Position numbers and translations under genes: made by a program
Part shown: piece after piece, positions 33,986 through 55,428 of the stretch
How the letters are laid out: every line of letters begins with the position of its first letter
Numbering within the stretch: the stretch's first letter is position 1
From: Candidatus Velthaea sp.
Lineage (GTDB): Bacteria > Vulcanimicrobiota > Vulcanimicrobiia > Vulcanimicrobiales > Vulcanimicrobiaceae
DNA: 64,000 nt
Assembly: GCA_050012475.1 (NCBI GenBank)
Contig: JBEKHC010000010.1
Span: 1-64,000, forward strand
Direction of reading: 5' to 3'
The notes under the pieces: model-generated
The model's input: the letters and a program-made list of their open reading frames with translations, nothing else
The model's database searches: none
Told to the model about the DNA's origin: nothing

Positions 33986-34426
33986 ATGGCAGCCTTTCGT
34001 TTTTCGCTGCAGCCAGTGCTCGAGCGGCGCACCCGGATCGAAACCGCGCAACGCGAGGTGTTGCTCGCCGCCGAGCGAGCCGCGGCGGGCGCGAGAGCCG
34101 AGCTGGTTGCGCTCGACCTGCGCCTGCACGGGTTGAGCCGCGCTTTCAGCGGCTCGTTCGCGGCGCTCGGCGCAAGCGACGTCCGCGGGTTGCTGCTCGA
34201 AATCGAGGTCGTCAAAACGTCCCTTGCCAAGCAGCGGCACGTCACCGACGCCGCCCGCGCGGCGGCGAGCAGGGCGCGCGATGCGTTCGGGGCCGCACGC
34301 GCCGAGCGCACGACGCTCGAAGCCGTACGGGACAGATGCTACGCGACGTTCCTAGCCGAGCAAGAGCTGCGCGAGGCGGCAGAATACGACGAGTCCAACG
34401 CCCGGCGCCGCATAATTTCGGCATAA
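33986..34426 (+). CDS. fliJ: FliJ-like export chaperone/stalk
   Basis: FRFSLQPVLE.R N-terminus, coiled coil, E....DE C-terminus. Confidence 0.8.
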   Translation: MAAFRFSLQPVLERRTRIETAQREVLLAAERAAAGARAELVALDLRLHGLSRAFSGSFAALGASDVRGLLLEIEVVKTSLAKQRHVTDAARAAASRARDAFGAARAERTTLEAVRDRCYATFLAEQELREAAEYDESNARRRIISA

Positions 34427-34469
34427 TCCGCGCACGGTCGGCCCATATTCGGCCGCTACGCTGTGCGGC

Positions 34470-34697
34470 ATGATGAATCTGACCGGCAACCTCGAATCGG
34501 CCGCGCTCGCCGGACGCGACGGCCTAAGCGCCGACGCAGCGGGCACCGCGCGCTCGATGACGGGGCCGTCTGCGCAACGCGATTTCGAGGCCCCGATGGC
34601 GCAGGCCGCGCGGCATGAGCTATTTACCGAAGCGTTGCTTTCGGCCGCCCACGCGCGGCTCGAAGAACTCAAGACCGCGGCCATGAACGGCCGATGA
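34470..34697 (+). CDS. Very short FlgB-like proximal rod protein
   Basis: C-terminal DFE..MA..A...L...AL......L..LKTA resembles FlgB; directly upstream of flgC. Confidence 0.6.
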   Translation: MMNLTGNLESAALAGRDGLSADAAGTARSMTGPSAQRDFEAPMAQAARHELFTEALLSAAHARLEELKTAAMNGR

Positions 34698-35104
34698 CCG
34701 ACTTTGCCATCCTCGGCGCCGCGTCGAGCGGGATGCAAGCGCAACGCGCGGCGATGGATATTGCCGCGCGCAATGTCGCGCTGGCACAAACCGGCGACGC
34801 CCGGCATCCGGCGCATGGACTCGTGCCCGATTTCGCGACCGTTCTTTCCGCTTCCAGCGCGCCCGAAGGCCCGGAGGACGCCGACGTCACGGCTCTCGAG
34901 GCGCAACTTTCCGACTCCGGCGACGACGCGAACGCCGGCGCAGTGGTTGCAATCAGCGGAGCCCACGTCGGCTCCGCGCCGCTCGATTCAATTACGGAGA
35001 TGATCAACGTCTTGGATTCACAACGCGCGTACGAAGCCAACGCGTCGATCTTCGACATCGGTAAACGCTTGTCGGAACGCACGATCGACATGGGGCGGCT
35101 GTGA
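34694..35104 (+). CDS. flgC: Basal-body rod protein FlgC-like
   Basis: ASSGM.AQR..MDIAARNVA; EMINV..SQRAYEAN. Confidence 0.85.
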   Translation: MTDFAILGAASSGMQAQRAAMDIAARNVALAQTGDARHPAHGLVPDFATVLSASSAPEGPEDADVTALEAQLSDSGDDANAGAVVAISGAHVGSAPLDSITEMINVLDSQRAYEANASIFDIGKRLSERTIDMGRL

Positions 35105-35409
35105 CCATCACGCCGCTGGACGCTATCGCAGAAAGCCCCGCTGCGACGGCGCTGGAGCCTGACATCTCGCGCGCATCCGGCAACGATGCGGCGACCTTCG
35201 GATTTGGAAGTTTGGTCTCTGCGCTGCGGGCCGGCACGCAATCGCTGCAGCGTGCGGAGGGTGCCGAAAACGCCTTCATCGGCGGAACCGGCGGACTGCA
35301 AGAGCTGGTCTTCGAGCGCGCCAAGGCCGACATCGTCGTCTCGATCGCGACGGCGGCTTCCTCGCGCGTGACCCAATCGATCAACACCGTCACCCAAATG
35401 CAACTATAG
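35101..35409 (+). CDS. fliE: FliE-like protein
   Basis: G...LQELV....KAD........SRV.Q....V.QMQL. Confidence 0.82.
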   Translation: MTITPLDAIAESPAATALEPDISRASGNDAATFGFGSLVSALRAGTQSLQRAEGAENAFIGGTGGLQELVFERAKADIVVSIATAASSRVTQSINTVTQMQL

Positions 35410-35479
35410 TGAATTCGACTTCATCGAATCCCTCGCGTTCGGCCTCACGGCTGAGCCGCATCAGTGCCAGGCTCTGACG

Positions 35480-36994
35480 GTGCTCAACGGAACCGTGCCA
35501 CGCCGCTGGCAAGATCTTTCGCGCTCCGCGCAGATCGGGTCGCTGGCGCTCGTCGCGATCGTGCTGATCGGACTGGCGGCCTTCTTCTTCACCCGCGATA
35601 CGCAAACGGGACTCTTCGCGCGTCCGCTGCTGCCCGAGCAGCTCGCCGACGTCGAGACCCGACTGGCGGCCTGGAATGTGCCGTTCTCCGCGACGAGCGA
35701 CAACGTTCGCGTTCTGAGCGCTCAGAAAAACGAAACGCTCTTGCGCCTGTCGCTCGCGGGCGTGCCGCGCCTGCACATCGCGGATTCGAGTGAAACGCTG
35801 GCCAAAGTCGGCGCGCTGACCCCGCAATCGGTCCTCGAAGCGCAGACGCGCGACGGACTTGCCGGCGACCTTGCGCTGGGCTTGCGCGACATCACCGGCA
35901 TTTCCGACGCGCGCGTCATCATCGCGCCCGCAACGCCGGGCTACTTCGCCGACGAAACGGCGCATGAAGCCAGCGCCAGCGTTCAACTCGTGCGCGCGCC
36001 GAGCGCCCAGCTGTCGCCCGAAACCATCGGCGGGATCAAGGCGTTCGTGGCCGCCGGCGTGCCGGGGCTGGACCCGGCGCACGTCGCGGTCGTCGACGAC
36101 CGCGGGGTCGCGCTGAGCGGCACCGCGTGGACTGGTGAAGGCGAAGCGCAGCAATTGCAGGCGTCCATTCAGTCGGCGCTCGATCAGGCGCTGGGGAATG
36201 GCCGGGCGATCGTCCGCGCCCACGTCGACGTCGATCCAACCACAAGCACGCAACACGAAACGAAGCGCACGCCGGTGACGGCCAAACCGATCGCCGGGCA
36301 AACGACTGACGAACACTACACGAGCGACAAGAAACGCTACTCGAAAATTCAATCGTCGACCGACCGCGGCAGCGACGTCGTGGTCACCGATAAGAGCAGT
36401 GCCGCCGGGCGTCCGCAGCGCGTCTCGATCGCGGTGTTTCTCGATCGGCCGCTGGCTTCGGAGATCCCGCTCATTCGCTCGCTGGTGGAAAGCGCCGGCG
36501 GATTGAATTATGCGCGCGGCGACAGCCTCAGCGTGCAGCCCATCGCGCTCGCGACTGCCCCGCAAACGGCGCCGATTCGCACGGTCCCGCCGGCCCAAGC
36601 CGTGCTCGCGACGTTCGTGCCGCTCCTGCCGCCGACGATCTGGATCCTCGCGCTCGGCGGGCTGCTGGTCGTGTTCGCGCGCCCGCTCAAGCGGCTGCTC
36701 GCCGATTTGGGCCCGGGCGTTCCCGCTGCCGCACCGACGCTCGCTGCCATGTCCGTGCCGGGGCCGGCAAGCGCAGCAACGCTCCCCCCTGTCTCGCCCG
36801 ACGCGATCTTCCGCGCGCTGGCCGACGAGCCGCCGCACACCGCGGCAACCGTGATCGCCGGATTGTCGACACCGGATGCGGCCGCCGTGCTCGACTTGTA
36901 TCCGGCCGACGCGCGGCGCGAAATCATCAGCCGGCTGGCGCGCCCGCGGACGCCGTTGGCCAACGACGTGTCGGGCGCCGTCGGCCATGGCTGA
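35480..36994 (+). CDS. fliF: MS-ring protein FliF with C-terminal FliG middle-domain-like extension
   Basis: TM, ARVII, ASASVQL, VAAGVPGL....VAVVD.RG, RVSIAVFLD, RGDSLSV, second TM, then LADEPPHTAATVIAGL...AAAVL..YP...RREII.RLA. Confidence 0.88.
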   Translation: MLNGTVPRRWQDLSRSAQIGSLALVAIVLIGLAAFFFTRDTQTGLFARPLLPEQLADVETRLAAWNVPFSATSDNVRVLSAQKNETLLRLSLAGVPRLHIADSSETLAKVGALTPQSVLEAQTRDGLAGDLALGLRDITGISDARVIIAPATPGYFADETAHEASASVQLVRAPSAQLSPETIGGIKAFVAAGVPGLDPAHVAVVDDRGVALSGTAWTGEGEAQQLQASIQSALDQALGNGRAIVRAHVDVDPTTSTQHETKRTPVTAKPIAGQTTDEHYTSDKKRYSKIQSSTDRGSDVVVTDKSSAAGRPQRVSIAVFLDRPLASEIPLIRSLVESAGGLNYARGDSLSVQPIALATAPQTAPIRTVPPAQAVLATFVPLLPPTIWILALGGLLVVFARPLKRLLADLGPGVPAAAPTLAAMSVPGPASAATLPPVSPDAIFRALADEPPHTAATVIAGLSTPDAAAVLDLYPADARREIISRLARPRTPLANDVSGAVGHG

Positions 36995-37490
36995 AGCTTT
37001 TCGCAGCTTTGCCGCACTGCTGCTCGGCCGCGACGAGGCCAACGCCGAGCCGCCGGGCCCGCCCGAATCCGAACCGGCCGTCATTACCGAACCATGCCGC
37101 GAAACCGACCCGCGGGTAGCCGATCTGCTGGCTGGGTTCACCGTCGAACTGAACCGGTTGACGGCGCGCGCCGCCGAACTGTTGGAGGAGCAGGCCGAAG
37201 CCGCACTCGCCGATCTCGCACGACGCGTGTTGGGACGGGAATTCGCTTCCTCGCCGGCCGAGATCGCAGCGCTGCTGGCCGAAACGCTCGCGGAGTTCGG
37301 CGTCACGCGGCCGCTCGCCGTACGCGTTTCGAGCGCCGACGCGCAGCACGTCGTTTCGCCCTGGCGCGTACAGATCGACCCGAGCCTTTCCGCCGGTGAT
37401 TTCGCGGTCGACGTCGAGGACGGCAGCTACGATCTCAACGTCCAGACCCGGCTGGATGCGCTGCTCGCGGCGCACCGGATCGCGCTGTGA
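36987..37490 (+). CDS. fliH: FliH/SctL-like ATPase stator
   Basis: LARRVLGRE, VRVS..D, DPSL..GD..V, RL; lies between fliF and the ATPase. Confidence 0.75.
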   Translation: MAEAFRSFAALLLGRDEANAEPPGPPESEPAVITEPCRETDPRVADLLAGFTVELNRLTARAAELLEEQAEAALADLARRVLGREFASSPAEIAALLAETLAEFGVTRPLAVRVSSADAQHVVSPWRVQIDPSLSAGDFAVDVEDGSYDLNVQTRLDALLAAHRIAL

Positions 37491-38761
37491 GCTTTGCTGC
37501 CCGGCGCGGCCGGGTTCTCGCCGCGCTGGGCGAGAGCGTGATCGCCCAGCTGCCCGGGGCGCGTGTCGGCGAAGCGGTCACGATCCGGGTCGGCGCGGCG
37601 CCGCGCGTTCCCGCGACCGTAACGCGCGTCGATGCCGCACGCGTTGAACTGCGGCCGCACACGTCGGTCGCCGGCGTCGGCGTGGGCGACGAAGTGGTGA
37701 CCGACCCGCTGGCCACGACTTTGCCGCTCGGGATGCGGCTGCTCGGGCGCGCGATCGATTCGGCCGGCTGCGCTCTCGACGCCAAAGGCAGCGTGCGCGG
37801 GCGCCGGAGCGCCGTCATCGATCCGCCGATCGATGCCGGTCAACGCGGTCCGGTCGAGCGGCCGTTTTGGACCGGCGTCAAAGCCATCGACGGGCTGATG
37901 ACGATCGGCCGCGGCGCGCGTGTCGGCATTTTCGGCGGCCCGGCGACCGGAAAATCGCTGCTCGTCGAAGCGCTGGTGCGCGGCGCCGGCGCCGACGCCG
38001 TGGTCGTCGGGCTGATCGGCGAGCGCGGCGCAGAAGCGGCGGCCTGGATGCAGCGCATCTCGCCGCACGCCACGATCGTGTGTTCGCCCAGCGATCGTTC
38101 CCCCAGCGAGCGCGTGCGCGCGGCGCACGTCGCGCTCGCGCAAGCATCGCAATTGCGCCGGCGCGGACTCAACGTGCTCGTCGTGCTCGACAGCCTGGCG
38201 CGCTTCGCGCTGGCCGCGCGTGAGATTGCGCTGCGCAACGGTGAAGCCGTCGGCCGCGGCGGCTATCCGCCCAGCGTCTTCGCCGAGATGACGCGGCTGC
38301 TGGAACGCGGCGGAAACGTGGGCGGCGGCAGCATCACGCTCGTGGCGACCGTGCTGTCCGACGGGCCGGACGACCGCGAACCCTTGAGCGACGGGGCTCG
38401 CGCAGCCCTCGACGGACACATCGTGCTGTCGGCCAAACTCGCGCGTCGCGGGCTCTTTCCCGCCATCGACGTGGCCGCCAGCGCGAGCCGCACGATGGAC
38501 GCCGCGGTAAGCGCCGGGCATCGGCGCAGCGCGCGGATCGTGCGGCGAGCAATCGCGGCGCTCGACGCCACCCGTGAACTGCGCGACCTCGGTTTCAGCC
38601 ATACCGACCGTCATCTCGAACGCGCCGTCGCGCTGCAAGAACGCATCGAAGCCTTCATCCACGACGGTCGGCGCACATCCGGCTCCGCCGAAATGCTGGC
38701 CGAGCTGCGCGCGCTCGCCGAACAACTGGATCTCGACGGACTCGAAGCGGTGTCTTTTTGA
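37487..38761 (+). CDS. fliI: Type III export ATPase FliI/SctN
   Basis: TGVKAIDG..TIGRG.RVGIFG, GKS, LIGERG, DSLARFA.A.REI, GYPPSVF, LDGHIVLS. Confidence 0.94.
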   Translation: MSFAARRGRVLAALGESVIAQLPGARVGEAVTIRVGAAPRVPATVTRVDAARVELRPHTSVAGVGVGDEVVTDPLATTLPLGMRLLGRAIDSAGCALDAKGSVRGRRSAVIDPPIDAGQRGPVERPFWTGVKAIDGLMTIGRGARVGIFGGPATGKSLLVEALVRGAGADAVVVGLIGERGAEAAAWMQRISPHATIVCSPSDRSPSERVRAAHVALAQASQLRRRGLNVLVVLDSLARFALAAREIALRNGEAVGRGGYPPSVFAEMTRLLERGGNVGGGSITLVATVLSDGPDDREPLSDGARAALDGHIVLSAKLARRGLFPAIDVAASASRTMDAAVSAGHRRSARIVRRAIAALDATRELRDLGFSHTDRHLERAVALQERIEAFIHDGRRTSGSAEMLAELRALAEQLDLDGLEAVSF

Positions 38762-39369
38762 TAGCGCTCGCCGATGTCGCCGCCGTCGAACGCCGCGTCG
38801 CTCAACTCGCCGACGGCGAACGTCCGCCCATCGATCGCACGTCCGGCGGCGCCGCGTTTTCAGCACTGTTGGCTGCTGGGGGCGCCGCGCCCGACGGCAC
38901 GCCGCCCGCGCCGCCGCCGCGTTCGATCCCCTTCGCCGAACTCGAGCGAACGATCGCGCAGGCGTCGGCGGCGAACGGGGTCGATCCCGCGCTGGTCAAA
39001 GCCGTCATTGCGAACGAAAGCGGCTTCGACGCTGGCGCAACGTCGAGCGCCGGCGCGCAAGGACTCATGCAGCTCATGCCCGGCACGGCGGCGAGTGAGG
39101 GCGTCGCCGACGCGTACGATCCGCGCCAGAATGTCGCCGGCGGAACGCACTATCTCCGTGGTTTGCTCGAACGTTTCCACGGCAATGTCGCGCTCGCGCT
39201 CGCGGGCTACAACGCTGGGCCGGGGGCGGTCGAGCGCGGCGCCATCGGAACCGAAACGCAAAACTACGTGCATTCGGTGCTCGCTTCGTACGCGGCGCTC
39301 CGTGCCTCCGCAAAGCCGGACGCCGACGCCGTTTCGCCGGACGCTGTTGCCGCAACGCCGATTGGATAG
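38758..39369 (+). CDS. Lytic transglycosylase (SLT domain)
   Basis: VIANESGF, GAQGLMQLMP.TA, AGYNAG, ETQNYV. Confidence 0.93.
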   Translation: MIALADVAAVERRVAQLADGERPPIDRTSGGAAFSALLAAGGAAPDGTPPAPPPRSIPFAELERTIAQASAANGVDPALVKAVIANESGFDAGATSSAGAQGLMQLMPGTAASEGVADAYDPRQNVAGGTHYLRGLLERFHGNVALALAGYNAGPGAVERGAIGTETQNYVHSVLASYAALRASAKPDADAVSPDAVAATPIG

Positions 39370-40532: not shown

Positions 40533-41186
40533 CTAAGCGATCAAGATGGAGCTCTGCGTGCAATCGTCGGGCGGATACTCCGGCGCGTCGCCGTGCTCGC
40601 CCCTTTCGTCCGCTGGACGCCGGCACGGTTGTTCGTGCCGGCGCTTGCGGCGATCGAGGGTGTCCGGAGCCGGCGGTGTGAGCGCGTTGGCCACCAAGAT
40701 CGGCGGCGGCGTGTTGTCGGCATCCGGCGTAGCGGGAGGCAGCAAGCGCAGCGCCGCATCGCTGCCGTAGCGCTCGATGGAGGCGGCTAGACGACCGGCG
40801 GTCGCCGCAGCGAGTTCCGTCTTGCTGGGGGACGCGGCGCCGCGCGTCCGCCCACCGGCCGCAAGCTGCGCCAGTGTCAGCTGGGCGATGAACGCTTCCC
40901 GCACTTGGGTCGGAAGCGCCGCGATGACGGTCGCGAACGCCTCGCCATACCGTCGGAGCAACACTCCGACCGCGTTCGGCCCGTACTCCGGCATCGTTTG
41001 CAGCAACGCCGCGACGTGCGCGTAGGGAACGCCGAACGTCGTCGCCGGATCGCATGCGATGCTATCGGCGGCCGGCATCGGACCGGTAAAAGCCCCCAGC
41101 GCTGAATCGACTGGGGTTTCCGCTGCCGCAGCAACGCGAACCGCCGGCACCGGCGAAACGCCTGGTAAGGCATCGAATTCCCTCAT
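40533..41186 (-). CDS. Hypothetical protein inside the export cluster
   Basis: ATG at 41186 after GGAGGAGG; 217 aa. Confidence 0.65.
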   Translation of the reverse strand: MREFDALPGVSPVPAVRVAAAAETPVDSALGAFTGPMPAADSIACDPATTFGVPYAHVAALLQTMPEYGPNAVGVLLRRYGEAFATVIAALPTQVREAFIAQLTLAQLAAGGRTRGAASPSKTELAAATAGRLAASIERYGSDAALRLLPPATPDADNTPPPILVANALTPPAPDTLDRRKRRHEQPCRRPADERGEHGDAPEYPPDDCTQSSILIA

Positions 41187-41321
41187 CCGGCCTCCTCCGC
41201 TCCCCCGCAGCGCCCTTTCACGCGCACGGGGTGCTTTTTCAAGGGCCGGCGGCCTCGGACCGACGATTATTTTGCGCGCAGAGAACACATCGGACACATA
41301 AGCCGCCGCTACGCTTGCGAC

Positions 41322-41594
41322 GTGGATGTTTTTGACGGCCTCCTGCGCGAGGCGCTCGTCGTGTGTGCGGTCATCTGCTTGCCGGTCTTAGGGGCGGCGG
41401 CGCTCATCGGGACGATCATTGCGATCGTCCAGGCGGCGACGCAGATTCAGGAACAGACGTTGACGCTGCTGCCCAAGCTCATCGTCGTCGCGTTCGTGGT
41501 CGCCGTGTTCGGCCGGTTCGGTTTGGGATTGTGCGCGAATCTCTTCACCGACGCGCTCGGCCGCATCCCGGCGTTGATTTCGTCGCTGGGGTGA
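41322..41594 (+). CDS. fliQ: Export gate FliQ/SctS
   Basis: QAATQIQEQTLT.LPK. Confidence 0.95.
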   Translation: MDVFDGLLREALVVCAVICLPVLGAAALIGTIIAIVQAATQIQEQTLTLLPKLIVVAFVVAVFGRFGLGLCANLFTDALGRIPALISSLG

Positions 41595-42310
41595 CGCAGC
41601 TGTATGCGCTCGTCTTCGCCCGCTGCGCCGGCTTCGTTTTCCGCGCGCCGGGCTTTTCGCACCCGGCGGTGCCGCCGATGGTGCGTGCGGGTTTGGCGCT
41701 GGTGCTTGCCGTCGGATTGAGCCCCGCGTTGCGCGGTCCCGGCGTTCTTCCCACTGGTTCGTTCGTCTTCGCATTGGCACTTGAGGTCGCGCTCGGCGCG
41801 ATGGTCGGCATGGCGGCATCGATTCTTTACGACGGCATCTCAGCGGGAGCACGCGCGCTCGATGACTACGTCGGCATCCAGGATAGTCTGCGCAACGCGA
41901 CGACCTCGGCCGGCGGCGAGGCGTTCAGCCGGCTGTGGACGATCACGTTCATCGCAGCCTTCTTCGTCCTGGGCGGATACCGTTTGCTGATTGTCGCCTT
42001 TGCGCGCGGGTTCGAGCTGCTGCCGCCGGGCTCGCTGCTGCGTCCGGGGCATCTGCTCGACTTCGCTCTCTCGCTGCCGACGCTGTCGCTGCGTGCCGCG
42101 CTCATCGTCGCGGGGCCCGGCATTTTGCTCGCGCTGCTCGCCCAGCTCGCGCTGGGCAGCGTCGCGCGCGTCATCCCGCGCTTTGCGAATTTCACCTTGA
42201 CGTTTCCGATCGTCTTCGGCGTCGTGCTCCTCGCGACACTGGCCACGCTGCCGTTTGCTGCGGACCTCGCCGGCCGTCCGTGGCTGCACCTGCCGATGCT
42301 GAACCCTTAA
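41591..42310 (+). CDS. fliR: Export gate FliR/SctT
   Basis: VFAR..G....AP.FS, E...G, LG..ARVIP, FP; GTGA overlap with fliQ. Confidence 0.92.
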   Translation: MTQLYALVFARCAGFVFRAPGFSHPAVPPMVRAGLALVLAVGLSPALRGPGVLPTGSFVFALALEVALGAMVGMAASILYDGISAGARALDDYVGIQDSLRNATTSAGGEAFSRLWTITFIAAFFVLGGYRLLIVAFARGFELLPPGSLLRPGHLLDFALSLPTLSLRAALIVAGPGILLALLAQLALGSVARVIPRFANFTLTFPIVFGVVLLATLATLPFAADLAGRPWLHLPMLNP

Positions 42311-47311: not shown

Positions 47312-47502
47312 GGGCGAGCCTAGCAGAGTCGGACGTTATGATAGAAACGAATCTCTTCGGACGCCCGAACAGGTTCGCTTTCCTCGCTGCAACCCTTGAC
47401 TTTCGAACCTTGAAACGCGATAGGGCACGTGGAGGCGATCGCCTCACTACGCGGCTCGTTCCTTTCCGTTCCGTCCGACCGAAGTCAACAAGGAGCAATC
47501 TC

Positions 47503-48019: not shown

Positions 48020-48337
48020 TCAACCGAAACGATACGCGCCGCTGTCGTCGATTTGAACCGTGCCGTGCTCGATTTCCAAGCGGTGGACGCGATGATCCCA
48101 GTAGCCGAGCAGCCGGATCGCATACGGCTTCATTCGTGCGAGCAGCGCTTTGGTCGCGCTCGAGACGACGAAGCGGTCGCGCACCCATTTCGGATGATCT
48201 CGCGGCAAGACGATCTCGCCGATCGCACCGGCATCGGTCAAGCCGCCCATGACCGTCGGCGATTCGGCCGCCTGCTGCGCGGGCGGTGCAGCGCTGGTTC
48301 CCTCGCGCCGTCGCACGATTCCAGCTCGTTTACTCAT
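48020..48337 (-). CDS. Hypothetical protein coupled to the sigma factor gene
   Basis: ATGA overlap with the sigma gene stop. Confidence 0.55.
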   Translation of the reverse strand: MSKRAGIVRRREGTSAAPPAQQAAESPTVMGGLTDAGAIGEIVLPRDHPKWVRDRFVVSSATKALLARMKPYAIRLLGYWDHRVHRLEIEHGTVQIDDSGAYRFG

Positions 48338-49002
48338 GCGCTGATCATCTCTTCGCGAACGATTTCGAGCGCGCGATCGCGCAACTGCGCGATGCGCTGC
48401 TTGGTCACGGACAACTCGCGCGCTACGGCTTTGAGTCGATAGCCGGAAAAAAAGTAGAGTTCGACGACCTGCCGATGGCGCACGGGCAATTTCTGGAGCG
48501 CCGCCCGTAAAATCGCGCGTGCCTCGTGTTCGCAGTACAGCCGAGCCGGATCCGTTTCCCAGTTCGCAGCGACCAGCGCGTCGACCGGGATCGCATCATC
48601 GAGTGAAACGCACGAACGGTGATGGGCGGCAATCCGAGCAGAGCGCAGCTTGGGATGCCGGCGCTCCATCTCGAGCATCGACGGCAGGTGACCAGCCGTC
48701 AGCGCGATGGCGTAGCGGTCCCGTTCCGCCTGACGTAAGATACGCCGGGTGAATTCGGTCAGCCGGTCCATGCGCCGCAACCCGTTGAGCATTGCGCCGA
48801 GAATGCGGGCGCGCGCGTAGCGATCGAGCGACGCTCCGCGAGCCGGATCGTAGGAATCGACCGCGCGGACGAGCCCCAGGCAGCCTTCGCCGACCAGATC
48901 GTCGAGGTCCACGCGCCCGGCTCGGCGTGCTACCGTGCGCGCGATGGTGCGGACTACCGGATACAATCGCACGATCGTCGCATCCCGCTCGGCCGCGGTC
49001 AT
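48334..49002 (-). CDS. FliA/WhiG-like (sigma-28 group) sigma factor
   Basis: DDLV.EG.LGL..AVDSYDP.RG, YA..RI.GAML..LR..D, SLD, region 4 HTH. Confidence 0.85.
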   Translation of the reverse strand: MTAAERDATIVRLYPVVRTIARTVARRAGRVDLDDLVGEGCLGLVRAVDSYDPARGASLDRYARARILGAMLNGLRRMDRLTEFTRRILRQAERDRYAIALTAGHLPSMLEMERRHPKLRSARIAAHHRSCVSLDDAIPVDALVAANWETDPARLYCEHEARAILRAALQKLPVRHRQVVELYFFSGYRLKAVARELSVTKQRIAQLRDRALEIVREEMISA

Positions 49003-49304
49003 TTGAGCCGCTCGGCGTCCTGGGCGGCGGCGCCGCCGGCGCCGGAACGTTCGGTCAGCGCTCGCAACTCATCGTAGAAGGCGTCGTGTTGGCCGCGCGC
49101 GATGGCGGCGCCCAGCGCATCGGTGAACACGTCGCCCAGCGGCCCCAATGCTTGCGCCAAGGGCGCGAGCACGCTCGACCACAACAGGCCCTCGAACTTC
49201 GCCGCGGTCTCGGCGTTCGGCGCCGATCCCGCCGCAGTTCTCGGCGGATCGACCGCCAACGGGACGCCGGCGGGACTAGCTGCGCTGGATGTTGTTGGCA
49301 ACAC
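48999..49304 (-). CDS. Short FlgJ rod-binding-like protein
   Basis: TAAKFEGLL...L motif; follows flgG; no muramidase domain. Confidence 0.5.
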   Translation of the reverse strand: MLPTTSSAASPAGVPLAVDPPRTAAGSAPNAETAAKFEGLLWSSVLAPLAQALGPLGDVFTDALGAAIARGQHDAFYDELRALTERSGAGGAAAQDAERLK

Positions 49305-50004
49305 GCATCATCTCGTCGGCGGCAGTAACGCCTTTGGCGTTGGCTTCGTAGGCGCGCTGCGCAGAGAGAATTTCCATCATCGCTTCGATCACCGAGACGT
49401 TCGAGCGTTCGAGCATCCCGAACGCGACCTTCGGACCGCCGTCGCGACCGGCATCCACATAGCGCACGGGTCCCGAATCGTTGGTCGCCGCGAACACGGT
49501 CGAACCGGCGACGCGCAGACGTTCGGGCGCGGCAAACGTGGCTAGGCGGATGCGGCCGGCAAACTGACGCTTCCCGGCCAGCGTGTCGACGTAGGTCATG
49601 CCGTCCGGTTCGGCCGTTATCGCCAGTGCATCATCGGGAACCTTGATGCCGACGAGCGAGAAACCGTCCGCGTTGCGCAACACGCCGTCGGGCGTGCGGT
49701 GAAATTCACCGTCGCGGCTGTAGACGAACGTCCCATCGGGGCGCTTGAGGGTAAAGAAACCGACGCCGTCGATTGCCGCGTCGAACGGACCACCCGATTT
49801 CATGAGCTTGCCCTGCTCGAAAAGCAGCTGTTTGCCGGTGAATGCGGTGCCCAGACCCGAGGTGCCGTCGGTGAGTGCAGCAAACCTGGCGGCACTGCCT
49901 TTGAATCCGGGCACTTCGGCATTGGCAAGATTGTCCGAAATCGTCTCGAGATTGTTTTGCTGCGCTGCCATCCCCGTTGCAGCCGCGAACATCGCCCGGT
50001 TCAT
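49276..50004 (-). CDS. flgG: Distal rod protein FlgG-like
   Basis: AATGMAAQQ..LE.ISDNLAN...PGFK, D.AIDG.GFF, YSRDG.F, LERSNV, QRAYEAN. Confidence 0.88.
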   Translation of the reverse strand: MNRAMFAAATGMAAQQNNLETISDNLANAEVPGFKGSAARFAALTDGTSGLGTAFTGKQLLFEQGKLMKSGGPFDAAIDGVGFFTLKRPDGTFVYSRDGEFHRTPDGVLRNADGFSLVGIKVPDDALAITAEPDGMTYVDTLAGKRQFAGRIRLATFAAPERLRVAGSTVFAATNDSGPVRYVDAGRDGGPKVAFGMLERSNVSVIEAMMEILSAQRAYEANAKGVTAADEMMRVANNIQRS

Positions 50005-50615
50005 TGAATCTTTCCCATCCCGTTAGCGGCTTTCGAGCGCGTTTCGTCGATCGCGACGAGCGTTTTTTGCGCGGTCTCGAACGCGCGCTGCGCATCGATG
50101 ACGCCGATCATCTCGCCGATCGAGTTGACGTTCGAGCTCTCGAGGAAGCCGCTCCGCACGGTGGTGCCGCGCGGCAGCGCCAACTGCGCGACGGCCCGGC
50201 CCGACGCACGCCACGTTCCGTCGGCTTCGATCGCCGGCGCGCCGGGCGGCAAACGAACGAAACCGTTCTTGCCCAGCAGCGTGCGGCCGTGCGCGTCGAC
50301 GAGATAGCCGTCGCAGTCAGAGGTGAACGCTCCCGCCCGCGTCGCAACGCGCAACTGCGGATTGCGGTCGGGCGCGACGAAAAACGAACCGCCGCCGATG
50401 AGGGCGAGATCCAGCGTGCGTCCGGTGAAGCGCGCGGGGCCTTTCTCGGGCGATGCGACCGCAACGGTCGTGAGGCCGCGTCGTGACGCAACGGTCCGGG
50501 CCAGGTGTTTGTGAAAGCCGTCGGTCGACGCGTTGGCGAGATTGTCGGTGGCGATTTCGAGCTTCGCCTTGGCGGAGAGCATTGCGCTCGCCATCCATTG
50601 AATGCCGGTCAACAT
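50001..50615 (-). CDS. flgF: Rod protein FlgF-like
   Basis: NLANAST.GF, TGR.LDLAL.G, TRAGAF, GFLESSNVN, QRAFE. Confidence 0.82.
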   Translation of the reverse strand: MLTGIQWMASAMLSAKAKLEIATDNLANASTDGFHKHLARTVASRRGLTTVAVASPEKGPARFTGRTLDLALIGGGSFFVAPDRNPQLRVATRAGAFTSDCDGYLVDAHGRTLLGKNGFVRLPPGAPAIEADGTWRASGRAVAQLALPRGTTVRSGFLESSNVNSIGEMIGVIDAQRAFETAQKTLVAIDETRSKAANGMGKIQ

Positions 50616-50674
50616 AGTCTCTACCTTACTTTTGAAAGATGCGTACAGTATTTTCTGAGCGCCGCGGATTTCGG

Positions 50675-51328
50675 TCAGCGAAAGCTGCTCGCGATGCCGC
50701 CGCAGACCAGCGTCCAGCCGTCGACCATAACGAACAGCAGGAGCTTACACGGCAGCGAGATCACGGGTGGACTGAGCATGAACATGCCGAGGCCCATGAG
50801 GATCGACGCCACCGCCAGATCGATGGCCACGAAGGGCAAATACAGCGCGAAACCGATCGCGAACGCGCTGCGCAATTCGCCGACCACGAACGCCGGCATG
50901 ACGACCGAGACTGGCTGCAGCGACGCTTGTGCTTCGGGCTCGTGCGCCACGCGCTCGAAGAGATCCAGATCTTTTTTGCGCGTCTGCCGGAGCATGAACG
51001 CGCGCAGCGGTTCGATGCCGCGCTCGATGAGCTGCGCTTGCGAGATGCGGCCTTGACTGTAGGGCACGATGGAATCGTGCGAAATGCGCTGCAGCGTCGG
51101 CGTCATGACGACGACGGTCAGCACCAACGAAACGCCGATCAAAACGATGTTGGGCGGCAGCGCTTGGGCGCCGATCGCGGAGCGCACGAGCCCGAGCACG
51201 ACCACGATGCGCACGAACGCCGTCGTCATCACGAGCAGCAGCGGCGCGATGGCCAGGATCGTCAGACTGCCCAGCACGTCGAGCGGCAGGGCCGCGTGAC
51301 TGCCGGGAAGGGCGAAGCCGGGTATCAT
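50675..51328 (-). CDS. fliP: Export gate FliP/SctR
   Basis: MTTAFVRI, PPN.VL, PAF...EL..AF.IGF..YLPF..ID, PP..ISLP.KLLLFV.VDGW. Confidence 0.96.
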   Translation of the reverse strand: MIPGFALPGSHAALPLDVLGSLTILAIAPLLLVMTTAFVRIVVVLGLVRSAIGAQALPPNIVLIGVSLVLTVVVMTPTLQRISHDSIVPYSQGRISQAQLIERGIEPLRAFMLRQTRKKDLDLFERVAHEPEAQASLQPVSVVMPAFVVGELRSAFAIGFALYLPFVAIDLAVASILMGLGMFMLSPPVISLPCKLLLFVMVDGWTLVCGGIASSFR

Positions 51329-51334
51329 GCCGGA

Positions 51335-51592
51335 TCAGCGCTGCGCGACGAGTTCGGTGATCCGAACGCCGTAATTGTCGCCCACCGCCACGATGTCGCC
51401 GCGGGCAACGATTTTGTCGTTGACGAGCAAATCGATCGGTCCGCCGGCGCAGCGATTGAGGTCCAGGATCGATCCGGTGCCCAGTTGCAAGACCTCTTCG
51501 ATCGTCAGCTTGCACGTGCCGAGTTCAGCGGTCACGTGCAGCGGCACGTGCATGAGCAGCTCGAAGTTGCCGTACTCGTCGGGCGGGCTCAT
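51335..51592 (-). CDS. fliN: C-ring protein FliN
   Basis: VPL.V.AELG, L..GSI..L, P.D..VN...ARG..V, YGVRIT. Confidence 0.93.
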   Translation of the reverse strand: MSPPDEYGNFELLMHVPLHVTAELGTCKLTIEEVLQLGTGSILDLNRCAGGPIDLLVNDKIVARGDIVAVGDNYGVRITELVAQR

Positions 51593-52401
51593 GTCGTCGC
51601 CTCCCGGCGGCCCGCAGCCGCGATGACAACCGCGTTGCTTTGGGCGCGGATGCCGCAGTCGCCGCTGGCGACGACGCAATCGCCGATCTTGACCATCGTC
51701 GGCGCACCGATCTTCGTATCGAGCCGCACCGTCTGTCCCACCCGCCAGGCCGCGATTTCGCGCGCGTTGACGACCGCCTCGGCGAACTGCGCGCGAACGT
51801 CGAGCGCGATGCCGGACAACATCGAACGCTCCAGCTTGCCGCCGAAGCGCGGACCCGGATCTTGCGAGAGCCCGATGCCGATCACGGCATCGAACGGCAG
51901 GCCGATCCGCAACTCGAAATACGTGACGCAGCGTGCGTCTTCACGCTCGGGTTCGATCCGTGCGAGGCCGTTCGCGTCGCCGCAGAACGGTGCGCAGAGC
52001 GCCGCGACCTCGGCGGCGATGCGTTCGAGCGCACGTTCTTCGAGCGCAGAAAGCGGCACGTTTTCGCCGCCGCACTCTTCGCCGAACACGCCCTGCGCGA
52101 TGCGCCGCGCGTCGCGCCGGCGGAACACGACGTAGAGGTCGCAGATACTGCCACGCGCCCGGTACAGGCTTCCGCGCTCGAAAAGGACGCGCTGCGTGCC
52201 GTCTTTGACGAGCACGGGCGCAAAGACGTCGAGCGTCAACTCGCGGGCCAGCAGGTTCGAGAGCCGGGCTCGCGCGTGATTGGCCGCTGCACACACGGCG
52301 GAAATCGGCAAGTCCGTGACCGGCTCGAAATAGGTCTCACGAACGAGTTTCGCGCCCGACGCGCCGCTGGGTTGGGCCCGAAAGCGCAGCATCGTGATCA
52401 C
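51589..52401 (-). CDS. fliM: FliM-like C-ring protein
   Basis: LSALE motif and C-terminal SpoA-like domain; upstream of fliN; no LSQ.EID CheY-binding N-terminus. Confidence 0.7.
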   Translation of the reverse strand: MITMLRFRAQPSGASGAKLVRETYFEPVTDLPISAVCAAANHARARLSNLLARELTLDVFAPVLVKDGTQRVLFERGSLYRARGSICDLYVVFRRRDARRIAQGVFGEECGGENVPLSALEERALERIAAEVAALCAPFCGDANGLARIEPEREDARCVTYFELRIGLPFDAVIGIGLSQDPGPRFGGKLERSMLSGIALDVRAQFAEAVVNAREIAAWRVGQTVRLDTKIGAPTMVKIGDCVVASGDCGIRAQSNAVVIAAAGRREATT

Positions 52402-53126
52402 TTGATGAGATCCACGGCGATCTTGGCCGCGCGGGCATCGGCCTGTGTGCCCGCGCTCATAGCATCGAGCGCGAGGAACGCCTCGCGAAGCTGAACGAGC
52501 CCGGCCTCGAAGTCGACCGACCCGAGGTCGCGCGATTGCGTCGCGAGCGCCCCGAACGATCCTTCCGTCGCCCGCCCGACGGTCGCGACGATACCGGGCG
52601 CGGGCACCGCCTGCGTCGCGCCTACGCGCTGCAGTTCGGTTCCGGCCGGGAAGCGCGCTAAAGCCACCCGCCCGACGGCGACGCGTTCTTTGGACGGTTT
52701 GTTGGTCTTGGGATCGATCACGGTGCGCGTGTAGGCGACGGTGCCGTCGGCCTCGACGTGCGCTTCGCTCACCCGTCCCAGCGCGGCATCGACGGGATCG
52801 ACATGCAGCGGCTGCGGCGACGCGCCCCGCGCCGCGGCGGGAAAGCCCAGCACCGCCGAACCGTCGGCGAAGCGAACGGTCCCGTCGACGACGGCGAAAC
52901 TTCCGTCGCGCGAATAAAACGGCTTCGCGGCTTTATCCAGGCCCATGAAGTAGGCGTGTTCGGGAGCCGCAACGCTCATCGGATCGAGCGCCGGTTTCGG
53001 GGGCGCCGGCGTCGCGCTGCGCACATCGTGATACGTGGCTTCGTACCCAGGCACATACGCGTTGAGCATCTCTTGGGTGCGCGCCGCGAGTTCGCTGAGC
53101 GCTTGCGCCGGACCGGGATTGATCAT
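52398..53126 (-). CDS. Divergent short hook/rod-family protein (FlgE/FlgG-like)
   Basis: LNAYVPGY, YSRDGSF, VALARF....L...G, SVDF...LV.L. Confidence 0.65.
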   Translation of the reverse strand: MINPGPAQALSELAARTQEMLNAYVPGYEATYHDVRSATPAPPKPALDPMSVAAPEHAYFMGLDKAAKPFYSRDGSFAVVDGTVRFADGSAVLGFPAAARGASPQPLHVDPVDAALGRVSEAHVEADGTVAYTRTVIDPKTNKPSKERVAVGRVALARFPAGTELQRVGATQAVPAPGIVATVGRATEGSFGALATQSRDLGSVDFEAGLVQLREAFLALDAMSAGTQADARAAKIAVDLIK

Positions 53127-53746
53127 GAATGCCCTTTCTGGATAGCATCGATCTCGATACGCACGCCGCGGCGCAGCAACGCGGCACGGGCTGCATCGAG
53201 TGCGGCCGCGACGCGCGGCGAGTTCCGGCCGTCATAGATGGCGATCAGACGCAGCACGGTACCGTGTTGCTGCACGAGCAGGTCGACGCCTGTGCCGTCG
53301 CCGAGTCTCGCCCGGCAATGGATTCGCTTGCGTACGATCGCGCCGGCGGCCGGCCGGAGCGTTGCCGTGACGCGCTGCTTGCGAGCCGGCAGCGCCGGGG
53401 AAAGCGCCGGCGCTGAGCTGACGAGCCGCATGCGCAGCGCCCGTTGCGCGAACGCGTTTGGGCTCGCGCCGGTTTGTGCTCCTGCACGCGCCGGCGCAGC
53501 GCGCAACGCCGCGGCAGCGCCGGCGACGAGCTCGGGGCGATTGCGTCCATTCGCGGCCGGTGGCTGCGCCGTAGCGCGCGGATGGAAGAGCGCGCGATAC
53601 CACGCTTCAGAAAGCGCGCGGCGATCCGTGTACACCGAAGGCGATGCAAACGAAGCATTCGGCGGCTGCGGTACGATCTCGTTCACGGACGCTGTTCCGG
53701 CATGAACGAAGCGTAGCGCCGGAATTTGGGACGGCCGTGACCGCAT
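53123..53746 (-). CDS. Possible FliK/SctP-like length-control protein
   Basis: Ala/Pro-rich N-terminal region plus a compact beta-beta-alpha-beta C-terminus (GVDLLVQQHGTVLRLIA...AL..RG..IEI); ATGA-coupled to the hook-like gene; start uncertain. Confidence 0.45.
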   Translation of the reverse strand: MRSRPSQIPALRFVHAGTASVNEIVPQPPNASFASPSVYTDRRALSEAWYRALFHPRATAQPPAANGRNRPELVAGAAAALRAAPARAGAQTGASPNAFAQRALRMRLVSSAPALSPALPARKQRVTATLRPAAGAIVRKRIHCRARLGDGTGVDLLVQQHGTVLRLIAIYDGRNSPRVAAALDAARAALLRRGVRIEIDAIQKGHS

Positions 53747-53810
53747 TATGGTCCGGGTGTGTGCCGACGCGGGCGCGATCGCTTCGCTGAGCCCGCGCAG
53801 CGTGCGGCGG

Positions 53811-54491
53811 TTACGCGGCCACAAACTTATAGCCGTACCCATAGATCGTCGTGAGGCAGGGCGGTAACTGCAGCTGCTCTTCGACTTTCGTCCGAACGCG
53901 CCGAATGTGTCCGTCGACGGTGCGGTCGTCGCCGTCGTAATCGAAACCCCACACCTTTTGCAGCAAGGTTTTGCGCGACAGCACGACGCCGGGATTGCTG
54001 GCCAGCGCCCATAGCAGCGAGAACTCCTTGGGGCGTAAACCGGCGTCGACACCGTCGACGCGCGCGACGCGCGCGCCTTCGTCGAGTTCGAGCCGTCCAT
54101 AGCGCAGCACGCGCGCGGCCGGCTCGGCGTCGGCCGTCTTGCGCCGCAAGATCGCGCGCACACGGCACACGACTTCGCGCGGAAAGAACGGTTTGGCGAC
54201 GAAATCGTCTGCCCCCAGTTCGAACGTCACGACCCGGTCGATCTCGTCGGTTCGGCCGCTGAGCACGAGGACGGGAATGGACCGGTTCTCGCCGCGCAAC
54301 GTCCGCATGACGCCCATTCCGTCGATCACCGGTAAGCCCAGATCGAGGATCACGAGTTCGGCGCCTTCGCGAACGTGACGCAGCGCCGCGCAGCCGTCGG
54401 CGGCTTCCACGGCATCAAAGCCCTCACTCTTGAGGTGAAAGACCATCAGGCTTCGAACGGCCTGATCGTCGTCGGCTACTACGATACGCAT
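53811..54491 (-). CDS. OmpR/PhoB-family response regulator
   Basis: DDD, LDLGLP..DG, GADDFV.KPF, RTVD.HIRR.R.K, GYGYKF. Confidence 0.95.
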   Translation of the reverse strand: MRIVVADDDQAVRSLMVFHLKSEGFDAVEAADGCAALRHVREGAELVILDLGLPVIDGMGVMRTLRGENRSIPVLVLSGRTDEIDRVVTFELGADDFVAKPFFPREVVCRVRAILRRKTADAEPAARVLRYGRLELDEGARVARVDGVDAGLRPKEFSLLWALASNPGVVLSRKTLLQKVWGFDYDGDDRTVDGHIRRVRTKVEEQLQLPPCLTTIYGYGYKFVAA

Positions 54492-54978
54492 TTATGCTCC
54501 AAGCTTTCTGGGGCGAAACACACGCTGCACGGTCCCGCCGCAACGAAACGACCGCGAACGCACCACGCAGGTGTGACGGCAAAGAGATCTCGAGATGTGC
54601 GAATGGCGCCAACGCCGTACGCGAGGCGTGCAATTGTGACGCGATGTTGAGCGTGTGTGCAAAATCTTCCAATGCCGCGGTCACAACCGGCGCGTAACAT
54701 GACGGGATGGGAGACCGAAACGCGCCCACATCGACGCCCCACGTCGCGCGCAGCGCGTCTGGCGGGGGCGAATCGTCCGGACAAACCGTGAATGTTCGAG
54801 CTGGCGGCAATCCTGGCATTGCCCTGGTGACGACGCTTGCTCCCCGACGTATCACCCGGTGCAGCACTTGTGCGACCGTTCACAATCGAACCAATCAGGC
54901 AAACGCGCGCGCACACATCCGGTCGGCGCTTGCCGCCTTCGCGTCGGCCCGGCGACCGAGGCCTGACGGTCAGGCGCG

Positions 54979-55428
54979 ATGAGCGATATTCCTACCGTGC
55001 TGCGCATCGTCTCGGCATTCGCCGTCGTTGTGCTGCTGTTGTACGCCTTTGCCGTCGTCGCGCGCCAGCGCCGGGGAACGAAACTGCACGCGCGCAGCGA
55101 TCGGCTCATCACGGTGATCGAGACGACGCCCCTGACGCAGAACGCGTCGCTGCACGTCGTGAAAGTGGGCGAGCGCTACCAGGTGATCGCGCTGACGTCG
55201 GCTACCGTTTCGCAGCTAGGTGAAATCGAGCCGGCAACGGTCGGACGCATCGCCGGCTCGCGCGATGCACCGTCGTTCTTTGCCGGAGCCGGCCGGCGGC
55301 CGAGCGCCCCTGCCGGGCAGCCGCCGCGAAGATCGCGGACCGGAGACGCTCAACCGGGCTGCGACGGCAATGCTCCAGACGGCGCGCACGGTACGGATCC
55401 ATTTGATCGATCGGCCGCGCCTCAGTGA
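54979..55428 (+). CDS. fliO: FliO-like protein; 3' end runs into duplicated foreign sequence
   Basis: N-terminal TM, I.VIETT.L.....LHVVKVG.RY..I; the C-terminal tail overlaps the repeat of 59460-59850. Confidence 0.75.
   Translation: MSDIPTVLRIVSAFAVVVLLLYAFAVVARQRRGTKLHARSDRLITVIETTPLTQNASLHVVKVGERYQVIALTSATVSQLGEIEPATVGRIAGSRDAPSFFAGAGRRPSAPAGQPPRRSRTGDAQPGCDGNAPDGAHGTDPFDRSAAPQ

Follow-up and report, generated by a model that had tools for sequence, protein, structure and literature searches.

A gene cluster at positions 33,986 to 55,428 of the window (the whole 64,000-nucleotide stretch of Candidatus Velthaea sp. DNA analysed here) very probably encodes a stand-alone, motorless exporter, separate from the real flagellum of the cell. 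Judged from its genes, the fuller statement, that this is a non-rotating, rod-based type III secretion or pilus machine with antibacterial cargo, is on balance probable. The window copy is not a one-off: the reduced system is phylum-wide, found throughout the class and with a counterpart in other classes. We did not find a description of such a system in the literature searched.

We scanned 48 ORFs with Pfam. The first block, on the forward strand, opens with fliJ (ATPase stalk; 33986..34426; Pfam FliJ, 4.9e-9). It is followed by two proximal rod genes, a short flgB (34470..34697; hhalign 88.7% to FlgB, E 2.6e-6, against 0.7% for the FlgC control) and flgC (34694..35104; a FlgC-like Pfam match and TIGR01395, 1.5e-14). 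The call of fliE (35101..35409) comes from a weak Pfam match under the cut-off (7.6e-4) and from its position. The product of fliF (35480..36994) matches YscJ_FliF and FliF_C, and its tail is a fused FliG middle domain (FliG_M, 1.1e-7; hhalign 92.5% to FliG-M, 9% to FliG-N, 0.3% to FliG-C), lacking the FliG N and C (torque) domains. The block ends with fliH (36987..37490, start predicted; Pfam FliH, 3.2e-11), the export ATPase fliI (37487..38761) and a lytic transglycosylase (38758..39369; SLT, 6.6e-28). We rejected the SLT gene after fliI/J as a unique shared mark, as it is also present in a Patulibacter flagellar locus. A second forward block holds fliQ (41322..41594; 5.1e-21), fliR (41591..42310; 3e-31), flhB (42314..43318) and a flhA of the reduced clade (43315..45360), all with Pfam matches. 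Between the two blocks lies a 217-aa gene on the reverse strand (40533..41186), which is conserved in the island subtype described below, has no Pfam match and directly precedes a small1-type gene in relatives. A promoter-like motif stands ahead of it (41215..41243, reverse; rank 16 in the genome scan).

The remaining genes lie mostly on the reverse strand. A FliA/WhiG-like sigma factor (48334..49002) matches sigma-70 regions 2 and 4, and TIGR02479 at 5.6e-34, below the curated cut-off; a conserved gene of about 100 aa after it (48020..48337) has no family match. Next to these are a FlgJ-like rod-cap remnant (48999..49304), recognised from its position and from orthologs that match Rod-binding (E 3.8e-6 and 9.6e-4), and profile-matched genes for the distal rod protein flgG (49276..50004) and the rod protein flgF (50001..50615). 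They are accompanied by fliP (50675..51328; TIGR01103 over cut-off), fliN (51335..51592, start predicted; FliMN_C, 1.6e-23) and a divergent fliM (51589..52401; FliM-C) that lacks the N-terminal CheY-binding peptide. In the flgE position, 52398..53126 has a weak FlgE/F/G-type Pfam match and encodes a short D0-D1 rod/hook subunit (AlphaFold2 pLDDT 93; Foldseek E 1e-12 against rod/hook chains). Its shortness was rejected as proof of reduction, since a Paenibacillus FlgE is of the same length. A probable remnant of the length ruler FliK (53123 to about 53750, start uncertain) is suggested by position and by weak Pfam matches of orthologs (E 0.024 and 0.065), with hhalign giving no clear result. 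An OmpR-type response regulator (53811..54491) is also present in the G002 island. On the forward strand, fliO (54979..55428) has lost its 3' third, in whose place stands a truncated copy of the beginning of the regulator gene at 59506. The right flank, which the sequence-only reading took to be visible, is thus a rearranged junction, and genes formerly 3' of fliO may have been lost or relocated.

The part list of that reading otherwise held up well. Pfam and profile comparison bear out the complete export core (FliPQR, FlhAB, FliHIJ and FliO), FliF, FliM/N and all five rod-type genes (flgB, flgC, fliE, flgF, flgG). The Walker A/B motifs, the catalytic Glu region, the FlhA FHIPEP motifs and the FlhB NPTH motif are intact. 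The core proteins score higher on flagellar than on injectisome models, FlhB excepted, and flgB, flgC and fliE are treated as flagellum-specific markers in the available part of PMC3459982. The same 48 ORFs gave no Pfam match to MotB, FliL, FliG_N/C, FlgD, FlgK/L, FliD, flagellin, FlgH/I, FlgM, Che proteins or a secretin, as that reading had also proposed, and the single MotA-family hit is FliQ itself (E 0.088, below cut-off). Some amendments are needed. A stand-alone fliG is absent as claimed, yet its middle domain is kept within FliF, and the short FlgE-type subunit, the FlgJ-like gene and the probable FliK remnant are kept as well. These gene-level comparisons show that an export gate, an ATPase complex, an MS ring, a FliM/N platform, a set of rod genes and a sigma factor all belong to the system itself. 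Its predicted parts include no stator, torque domain, CheY site, hook cap, junction proteins, filament or L/P rings.

The same genome (G000) encodes a complete ordinary flagellum elsewhere, with fliG, motAB, flgD/E, flgK/L, fliD, three flagellins and its own full export set (C42, C93, C163). The window cluster therefore does not serve that flagellum. The sequence-only reading would have been overturned by a canonical flagellum with no second export apparatus; the second apparatus exists. Three MotB genes were found, on C42, C20 and C145 and none in the cluster, and a second reduced copy lies on C15 and C57.

Comparison across relatives showed that the reduced system recurs and is kept both with and without flagella. 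There are two subtypes, a ubiquitous chromosomal one and a rarer island one, to which the window copy belongs. Among 85 family genomes, 49 have the low-score FlhA type only, and none of these 49 has a MotB plug domain; 30 of the 31 with a canonical FlhA carry a second FlhA. In family f3, FlhA (10/11) and FliF (11/11) persist while flagellin, FliG_C and MotB plug are each found in 0/11. FliG_C is missing from all 21 flagellin-negative genomes of the 39 examined. In 30 picked non-flagellated genomes flagellin never exceeded the cut-off, and FlgD and FlgI were each found once, FlgI in G041, the owner of a canonical set. The hosts are free-living soil bacteria with a cultured representative. The cultured species is reported with type IV pili only in the available part of PMC9758169, which counts against the machine that we favour. 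The non-rotating, stand-alone character proposed earlier draws support from both the gene losses and the persistence in relatives that lack flagella.

The chromosomal and other-class copies share one gene order, flgB-C-fliE-F-G-H-I-J-(SLT)-fliK-flgE-fliM-N-O-P-Q-R-flhB-flhA. The basic residues at the two torque positions of FliG (arginines) are both missing in 8/8 FliG of the other-class operons and present in 5/5 flagellar FliG; the FliG-M motif E-[PS]-x-x occurs in 14/14 tails. Six loci have a gene of about 405 aa near the chromosomal operon, five with the promoter-like motif. It has no Pfam or PDB match and was absent from G000 in a motif-based search. A sigma-28 reading of the other-class promoters is not secure, as sigma-70 spacing fits equally.

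These data bear on whether the locus is a decaying duplicate or a spare-parts store of an ordinary flagellum. Long branches in the trees, the broken and decaying island copy in G003, the truncated fliO of the window and an assembly contamination of 5.3% would fit such a view. Against it, the operon is intact and syntenic across three families, the system is kept in three single-contig genomes that lack flagellin and FliG_C (G007, G009, G018), and catalytic motifs are intact. G002 holds three FlhA types as well. The dN/dS values of 13 gene pairs (0.08-0.39) are well below 1, which indicates purifying selection on the reduced system. Decay is highly improbable as an explanation of the cluster, and for the whole lineage it is largely refuted.

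The ancestry of the system is less straightforward. The reduced FlhA proteins form a clade of 28 sequences (support 100) that mirrors the host families. In the FliI tree and the FlhB/FliPQR tree a related clade stays among flagella, and in the latter the other-class clade joins the flagellum of G000 (support 95). This would agree with the earlier proposal of an independent derivation, but the markers conflict: a six-gene tree groups the clade with injectisomes, apart from all flagella. The data do not reject its union with injectisomes (p 0.117); on six genes, its union with the phylum's canonical flagellum is rejected (p 0.012). The reduced system lies outside the monophyletic Sct clade in every free tree, and a genuine Hrp2-type locus, in G028, sits on a distant branch. 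A basal FliI position in a FastTree analysis was set aside as likely long-branch attraction.

Two small genes are candidates for Hrp-pilin-like (HrpA) subunits: small1 (45530..45799, forward; 89 aa) for a pilus or needle, and small2 (47503..47775, forward; 90 aa, S/Q/A-rich) as a second axial subunit. The latter has a promoter-like motif ahead of it (47395..47423, forward; rank 25), has four homologs besides itself and follows the sigma operon in L348. Alignment of small1 with its homologs (22 besides itself) shows a variable G/S-rich N-terminus and an invariant helical C-terminus. AlphaFold2 models it as one long helix (pTM 0.33). Clear relatives are rare (two in 301 family genomes; two clusters at 50%), and its homologs adjoin fliQ-fliR in all four loci that reach that far. 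The Hrp-pilin-like label given earlier finds no more than a lead in the ESM feature score of small1 to an HrpA cluster (0.88, under the lead line of 0.9); it gains nothing from Pfam, NCBIfam or solved folds, where neither protein had a match (Foldseek for small1). In other classes a helical family of about 80 aa is multi-copy in 43/51 genomes, with near-identical tandem copies, and stands beside flhA in 6 of the 10 read. It has an atlas score of 0.91 to an HrpA cluster, no match among solved structures and no profile similarity to small1 (3%). A composition ranking of subunit candidates is circular for small1 and small2; two other G000 proteins that it picked (C9, C15) were dropped, as they were not found with these queries in five relatives. 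A pilin candidate was sought for the chromosomal subtype and none was found.

How the system would cross the outer membrane is a puzzle. We found no channel: the cluster has neither L/P-ring genes nor a secretin. The secretins of four relatives all lie within type IV pilus, Tad or T2SS-like loci. G000 has four, two of them (C193, C12) with no clear locus context; the one on C32 was rejected as a system part because it lies in a type IV pilus operon. On one reading, the exporter has no needle and reaches only as far as the periplasm: cargo passes the inner membrane and the wall, and the final step uses the secretin of a type IV pilus or Tad system, with the small helical proteins as inner-rod, plug or cargo. 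A type IV pilus secretin is present in all five genomes searched, and the chromosomal subtype's lack of a pilin candidate points the same way. There is a precedent in the Myxococcus T3SS*, proposed to work with the Kil pilus in the available part of PMC12075869. We nevertheless consider this reading unlikely, as the full rod set, the hook-position subunit and the probable ruler fit a structure of set length, and near-identical tandem copies, as in the other-class small proteins, are what abundant structural subunits have.

The proposed cargo comes from the neighbours of the island subtype. Beside small1 homologs, L351 has an Endonuclea_NS_2 gene (6e-21) with a YezG-like immunity gene (1.3e-12), and L349 a YezG-like gene (1.6e-10). 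G002 has an EndoU gene (7.8e-20) behind the same promoter-like motif. In L348, flhA is directly followed by a homolog (E 4e-35) of the 447-aa G000 gene with the highest-ranked motif (C1). The product of the rank-4 motif gene (C50) carries an endolysin-like domain at its end (E 1.3e-4). The shared motif points to more toxin-like genes. It is not enriched genome-wide (123 matches against 82-139 expected; in a second count 19 against 13 in the control, 12 of the 19 inside genes), and its pattern was defined once the window's own sites were known. Toxin-immunity pairs collect in islands for many reasons. The toxin genes could be passengers exported by other routes, and the system itself an appendage without a motor that serves attachment, contact between cells or interaction with eukaryotes (mosses, fungi, protists). 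The HrpA/HrpE-like atlas leads suit such an appendage, as does a 295-aa gene in the G002 island (G/Q/N/S-rich, Cys-free, no family match), which we take to be harpin-like; near-universal retention suggests a routine role. We regard an appendage as distinctly improbable, because the domains recognised in linked genes are those of bacterial-type nucleases, accompanied by immunity genes, and of a wall hydrolase, and the ORFs scanned gave no recognisable translocon or domain directed at eukaryotes.

In the rod-based secretion machine that we favour, FliF with its fused FliG middle domain would form a static sorting platform holding the FliM/N-FliH/I/J complex. The SLT enzyme would open the peptidoglycan wall for the rod, and FliE, FlgB, C, F and G with the short FlgE-type subunit would make a rigid conduit. 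On this, small1 and small2 may polymerise as an Hrp-like pilus, replacing hook and filament. The FliA-like sigma factor would turn on late genes and cargo. In the island subtype only, the cargo may include polymorphic toxins aimed at bacteria, among them nucleases with immunity genes, a wall hydrolase and perhaps a pore former, and such cargo would suit the window copy for contact competition with other bacteria.

The path from flagellum to injectisome has so far been rebuilt from its end points, namely flagella, Myxococcales systems that have no rod, and injectisomes that carry a secretin. The reduced lineage would supply the missing combination: it retains rod and FliF, has neither motor nor filament and would have gained small pilin-like subunits. 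It shows two degrees of reduction and coexists with a working flagellum, which makes the order of steps testable. It raises the question of how a rod crosses the outer membrane when both L ring and secretin are missing, suggests that antibacterial effectors of the toxin-immunity type are delivered by type III secretion, and means that motility calls from flagellar gene counts are wrong for many members of the phylum. More tentatively, and less likely than not, the lineage could form a third main branch of type III secretion, old and phylum-wide, that kept MS ring and rod, took up Hrp-pilin-like subunits in place of motor, hook cap and filament, and injects polymorphic toxins into other bacteria. 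It would then be a surviving sister lineage to all injectisomes, or else an independent second run of the transition from flagellum to injectisome, before secretin recruitment.

Of known systems, the flagellar hook-basal body (Bacillota-type fla/che order) shares the gene order of the chromosomal and other-class copies, and FliF, FliH/I/J, rod genes, a FlgJ-like protein and a FliA-like sigma factor are common to both. The reduced system differs in having no stator, torque domain or residues, CheY site, FlgD, FlgK/L, FliD, flagellin or L/P rings, and in having the FliF-FliG_M fusion and small helical genes instead of flagellin. Hrp1/Hrp2 injectisomes likewise have a lytic transglycosylase and a dedicated sigma factor, and their small helical subunit, conserved at the C-terminus and variable at the N-terminus, has a candidate counterpart here (the atlas leads are HrpA_pilin/HrpE-like). 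In contrast to these, no SctC, SctD, lipoprotein SctJ, SctI, SctW or translocon was recognised in the cluster.

Buchnera motorless basal bodies kept export and rod genes after losing flagellin and motAB, and protein export has been proposed for them; they keep FlgH, often FlgD/E/K, and often lose FliI (available part of PMC8109811). The flagellar T3SS of Lysobacter enzymogenes also kept export and rod genes after flagellin loss and has antimicrobial cargo (available part of PMC7688988). The reduced system matches this type in having an export core left intact after loss of filament and motor. As far as the accessible text of these sources goes, theirs is the only flagellar set of the cell, whereas the reduced system is a separate old lineage beside a full flagellum, keeps FliI, has no L/P rings and has its own candidate subunits. 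The Myxococcales T3SS* shares the absence of secretin and motor and has an antibacterial role in prey lysis (PMC3459982, PMC12075869), and it keeps FliO (PMC12403147), as does the reduced system; in the accessible portions of these papers it lacks FlgBCDEK and FliE/G and lies inside the injectisome clade. The reduced system, by contrast, has retained FliE, FlgB/C/F/G, a FlgE-type subunit and FliF, with FliG preserved partly or wholly, and stands outside that clade.

The flagellar-type export genes attributed to the window cluster (33986..55428) from sequence alone were borne out by Pfam and NCBIfam, and motif inspection found the catalytic motifs intact in FliI, FlhA, FlhB and the SLT protein. 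FliP passes the NCBIfam cut-off of TIGR01103; a motif pattern tried on it gave no match. Of the 48 ORFs scanned, none matched a stator, filament, junction, cap, L/P ring, chemotaxis or secretin family, as the sequence-only reading had it. Its picture of a stripped-down gene set holds for the motor and filament genes, which are absent, but four remnants had been overlooked. A FliG middle domain is fused to FliF, a D0-D1 rod/hook subunit occupies the flgE position (FlgE and FlgG cannot be told apart by score), a FlgJ-like gene is kept and a FliK remnant is probably present. The right boundary is a rearrangement that cuts fliO. The end of fliO is replaced by a partial copy of the start of a BTAD/TPR regulator gene, and the partial duplicate of this gene start at 55290-55530 and 59420-59670 flanks a LanM-type gene. 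Three lower-GC passengers lie within the island: a small membrane protein (39750-40121, minus strand), for which an orphan immunity role is a guess, and a RibD-C/DHFR-like gene and an ORF without an assigned family (45981-46540 and 46769-47311, both minus strand).

The source assembly (G000; 5.36 Mb, 204 contigs, 93.8% complete, 5.3% contaminated), in which the window is C10:1-64000, encodes three FlhA. One is part of a complete flagellum on contigs C42, C93 and C163, with FliG, MotAB, FliK, FlgD/E, FlgA/H/I/J/N/K/L, FliD, three flagellins and Che genes. The other two belong to reduced paralogs, i.e., the window cluster and a copy on C15 plus C57 whose proteins share 30-65% identity with those of the window. 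The second copy lies at a conserved chromosomal site (C15:3421-21200 and C57:9864-12276; loci L028, L029 and L030). With the complete flagellum separate from two reduced paralogs, the possibility that the window locus simply serves an ordinary flagellum does not hold, in line with the earlier reading. Two more motA/motB pairs lie outside the flagellar operon (C20:22923-24743 and C145:6479-8035), the latter adjoining cheY/cheC-like genes. The closest named FlhA to that of the window (56%) comes from a Vulcanimicrobiaceae MAG, and the tree places this FlhA among the window's family, which points to a host in the Vulcanimicrobiota (Eremiobacterota).

The C15-type, or chromosomal, subtype is syntenic among the relatives read and lies mostly between rplM/rpsI and secDF, names assigned by eye from translations. 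Its flgF-flgG-flgJ-sigma genes are at a second site, and family f3 splits the set further. Nearly every chromosomal copy of families f1 and f2 also contains a LolA-like/aspartyl-protease gene, located between the FliK-like gene and SLT (or fliI). Near the chromosomal operon is a conserved gene of ~405 aa (L032:8757-9986 and five homologs), which has the promoter-like motif described below in 5/6; it had no match in Pfam or PDB and may carry a clostripain-like motif. The window copy is of an island subtype, which unites all genes at one place and has fliJ, fliO, a regulator and small genes in addition. This subtype also occurs on contig C18 of relative G002, as sister of the window copy (support 99-100), in metagenome contigs and in G196. 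A congener (G003:C64, L143) carries the window's island decayed at the same uvrC site, with fliF and flgG broken; a search of this contig did not recover fliH to flhA.

FlhA was found in 145 of 151 sampled genomes of the phylum. Flagellin is present in 18/39 genomes and FliG_C in 17/39, and reduced FlhA occurs in 17 of the 21 flagellin-negative genomes, including the single-contig G007, G009 and G018 (the FlhA tally of these 39 takes in unpublished G011 and G024, and f3 denominators take in unpublished G036). A hand count of 85 family genomes, with score classes tree-checked for rows of the 136-row FlhA tree only, gave low-scoring FlhA only in 49, the canonical type in 31 and none in five; family genomes lacking FlhA include G015, G074 and G107. 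A second FlhA match occurs in 30 of the 31, and the MotB plug, found in 30/85, is confined to the same 31. In 30 genomes chosen because MotB or flagellin was missing, a single genome (G041) accounted for the only FlgI and the only FlgD, and flagellin passed the cut-off in none; G000 and G089 served as positive controls. Across 13 gene pairs dN/dS was 0.08-0.39 (uvrC control, 0.06) at a dS of 0.8-1.2, near saturation.

In the phylum's other classes FlhA is present in 51/51 genomes and the MotB plug in 21/51 (three weak). Over the stretches covered, the operon in the ten genomes read runs flgB-C-fliE-F-G-H-I-J-SLT-fliK-short flgE-fliM-N-O-P-Q-R-flhB-flhA and contains neither flgD nor motAB. flgF-flgG-flgJ recurs in 5/5 loci, followed by a sigma gene in the four that extend that far. 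FliG of this operon is full length. The basic torque-position residues of FliG have a role in torque; both are missing in 8/8 operon proteins and present in 5/5 flagellar FliG. The reduced system is real rather than a relic, and larger than could be seen from the window sequence alone. In some other-class genomes the canonical flagellar genes are scattered and rearranged (L228/L229 of G089:C1; L264), while the motorless operon has retained its ancestral gene order. Single genomes of these classes also have as many as seven additional FlhA-family matches, most of them the cytoplasmic domain alone (L168-L186, L196-L209), and G048 has an N-terminal-only copy adjoining flhA; the extra copies are possibly cargo-specific docking modules. 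A contig assigned to G028, a genome of the same taxonomic order as the source genome (C346; L127/L128), encodes a classical Hrp2-type injectisome (HrpB1/B2/B4/B7, HpaP, secretin), perhaps through transfer or mis-binning.

The FlhA tree (FastTree, 136 rows) recovered a reduced clade (28 rows) and an other-class clade (10 rows), both at 100, with injectisomes (12 rows) at 100 and flagella (84 rows) at 96. A six-gene tree under a mixture model (34 of 45 rows) joined the reduced and other-class clades at 96, and split all 15 flagella from these clades and the injectisomes at 99; in the six-gene FastTree run on the full 45 rows the reduced and other-class clades stayed apart. Because of the mixture-model tree and the shared gene order, we favor a common origin for the two reduced grades. 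Constraining both with the phylum's own flagellum was rejected (p 0.012), and constraining the reduced clade with injectisomes was not (p 0.117). The FliI tree, which had ATP synthase as outgroup and did not include the long reduced rows, places the other-class clade with Paenibacillus (94/84). The FlhB/FliPQR tree places it with the source genome's flagellum (95) and leaves the reduced clade unplaced. Both trees speak against a link to injectisomes, which thus seems to rest on FlhA and may reflect convergence or long-branch pull.

The Hrp-pilin-like genes proposed in place of flagellin remain a lead only: for small1 (45530..45799, plus strand, 89 aa) a HrpA-pilin cluster in the ESM atlas scores 0.88, after Vulcanimicrobiota hypothetical clusters. 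Relatives of small1 are rare; its 22 homologs vary in their G/S-rich start and are invariant in their helical end. Nine metagenome loci were found, of which two, 98-100% identical to the window protein, were set aside and seven were read together with G196. In 4/4 loci reaching that far, fliQ-fliR is present upstream, and a 217-aa-type gene separates it from the small1-type gene. The other classes encode a distinct, multi-copy helical family of ~80 aa (43/51 genomes; 0/100 in the window's class), which the ESM atlas links, with a score of 0.91, to a cluster where 24% of members carry HrpA_pilin. It does not align with small1. A search for an axial subunit of the chromosomal subtype found none. 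The helical domain of the ~80-aa family also forms the C-terminal end of longer proteins whose N-termini are disordered (L210:15007-15741, L218:13261-13908, L221:7397-8797); these are candidate tip, adaptor or cargo proteins. A conserved gene of ~95 aa without a family match lies between flhA and the ~80-aa gene (L210:17085-17429, L212:17270-17542, L218:17591-17881, L221:5771-6091) and is a possible chaperone.

A promoter-like motif is common to three small genes in the island of G002. When the source genome was ranked with a matrix built from eight sites of relatives, rank 1 was an A/G-rich protein of 447 aa that has a hydrophobic stretch at the C-terminus, and rank 4 a 289-aa protein with an endolysin-like end. 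The window's 217-aa gene (40533..41186, minus strand; motif at 41215..41243) ranked 16 and small2 (47503..47775, plus strand, 90 aa; motif at 47395..47423) ranked 25. The 123 matches are not above chance (82-139 expected), and a pattern search of five genomes gave 19 vs. 13 in the control. The motif alone is weak, since counts are near chance and the window's sites were already known when the pattern was drawn up. Independent support for a cargo link comes from island L348, where flhA is directly followed by a homolog of the 447-aa protein (E 4e-35), from two unlinked strong motif sites in G002, one leading to an EndoU nuclease protein and the other to a glycine-zipper protein, and from toxin-immunity-type pairs at the end of two small1 loci. 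The motif- or island-linked toxin-type proteins have S/P/T/A-rich stretches at the start, and inspection by eye revealed no signal peptide.

The outer membrane is the main gap in the proposed mechanism. L/P rings are missing from the reduced system, and in four relatives the secretins belong to loci of type IV pilus, Tad or T2SS-like kind; G032 has a pilus secretin only. We found no description of this system in the mainly open-access literature searched. In the parts available, PMC9758169 reports no flagella in the cultured species, Vulcanimicrobium alpinus, and its supplements list fliN (Table S8) with no flagellin and no flh or flg rows. TXSSCAN was applied to one family of this phylum in PMC9259500, whose supplements may bear on novelty; the main texts of PMC12199754 and PMC12403147, as far as available, do not mention the phylum. 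The reduced system falls outside both the motile flagellum and the injectisome. Judged from its genes, it would work like a repurposed flagellar export machine, probably in the manner of an injectisome. Systems for comparison are the Myxococcales T3SS* (PMC3459982, PMC12075869), the basal bodies of Buchnera (PMC8109811) and the system of Lysobacter enzymogenes (PMC7688988), as described in the parts of these papers available.
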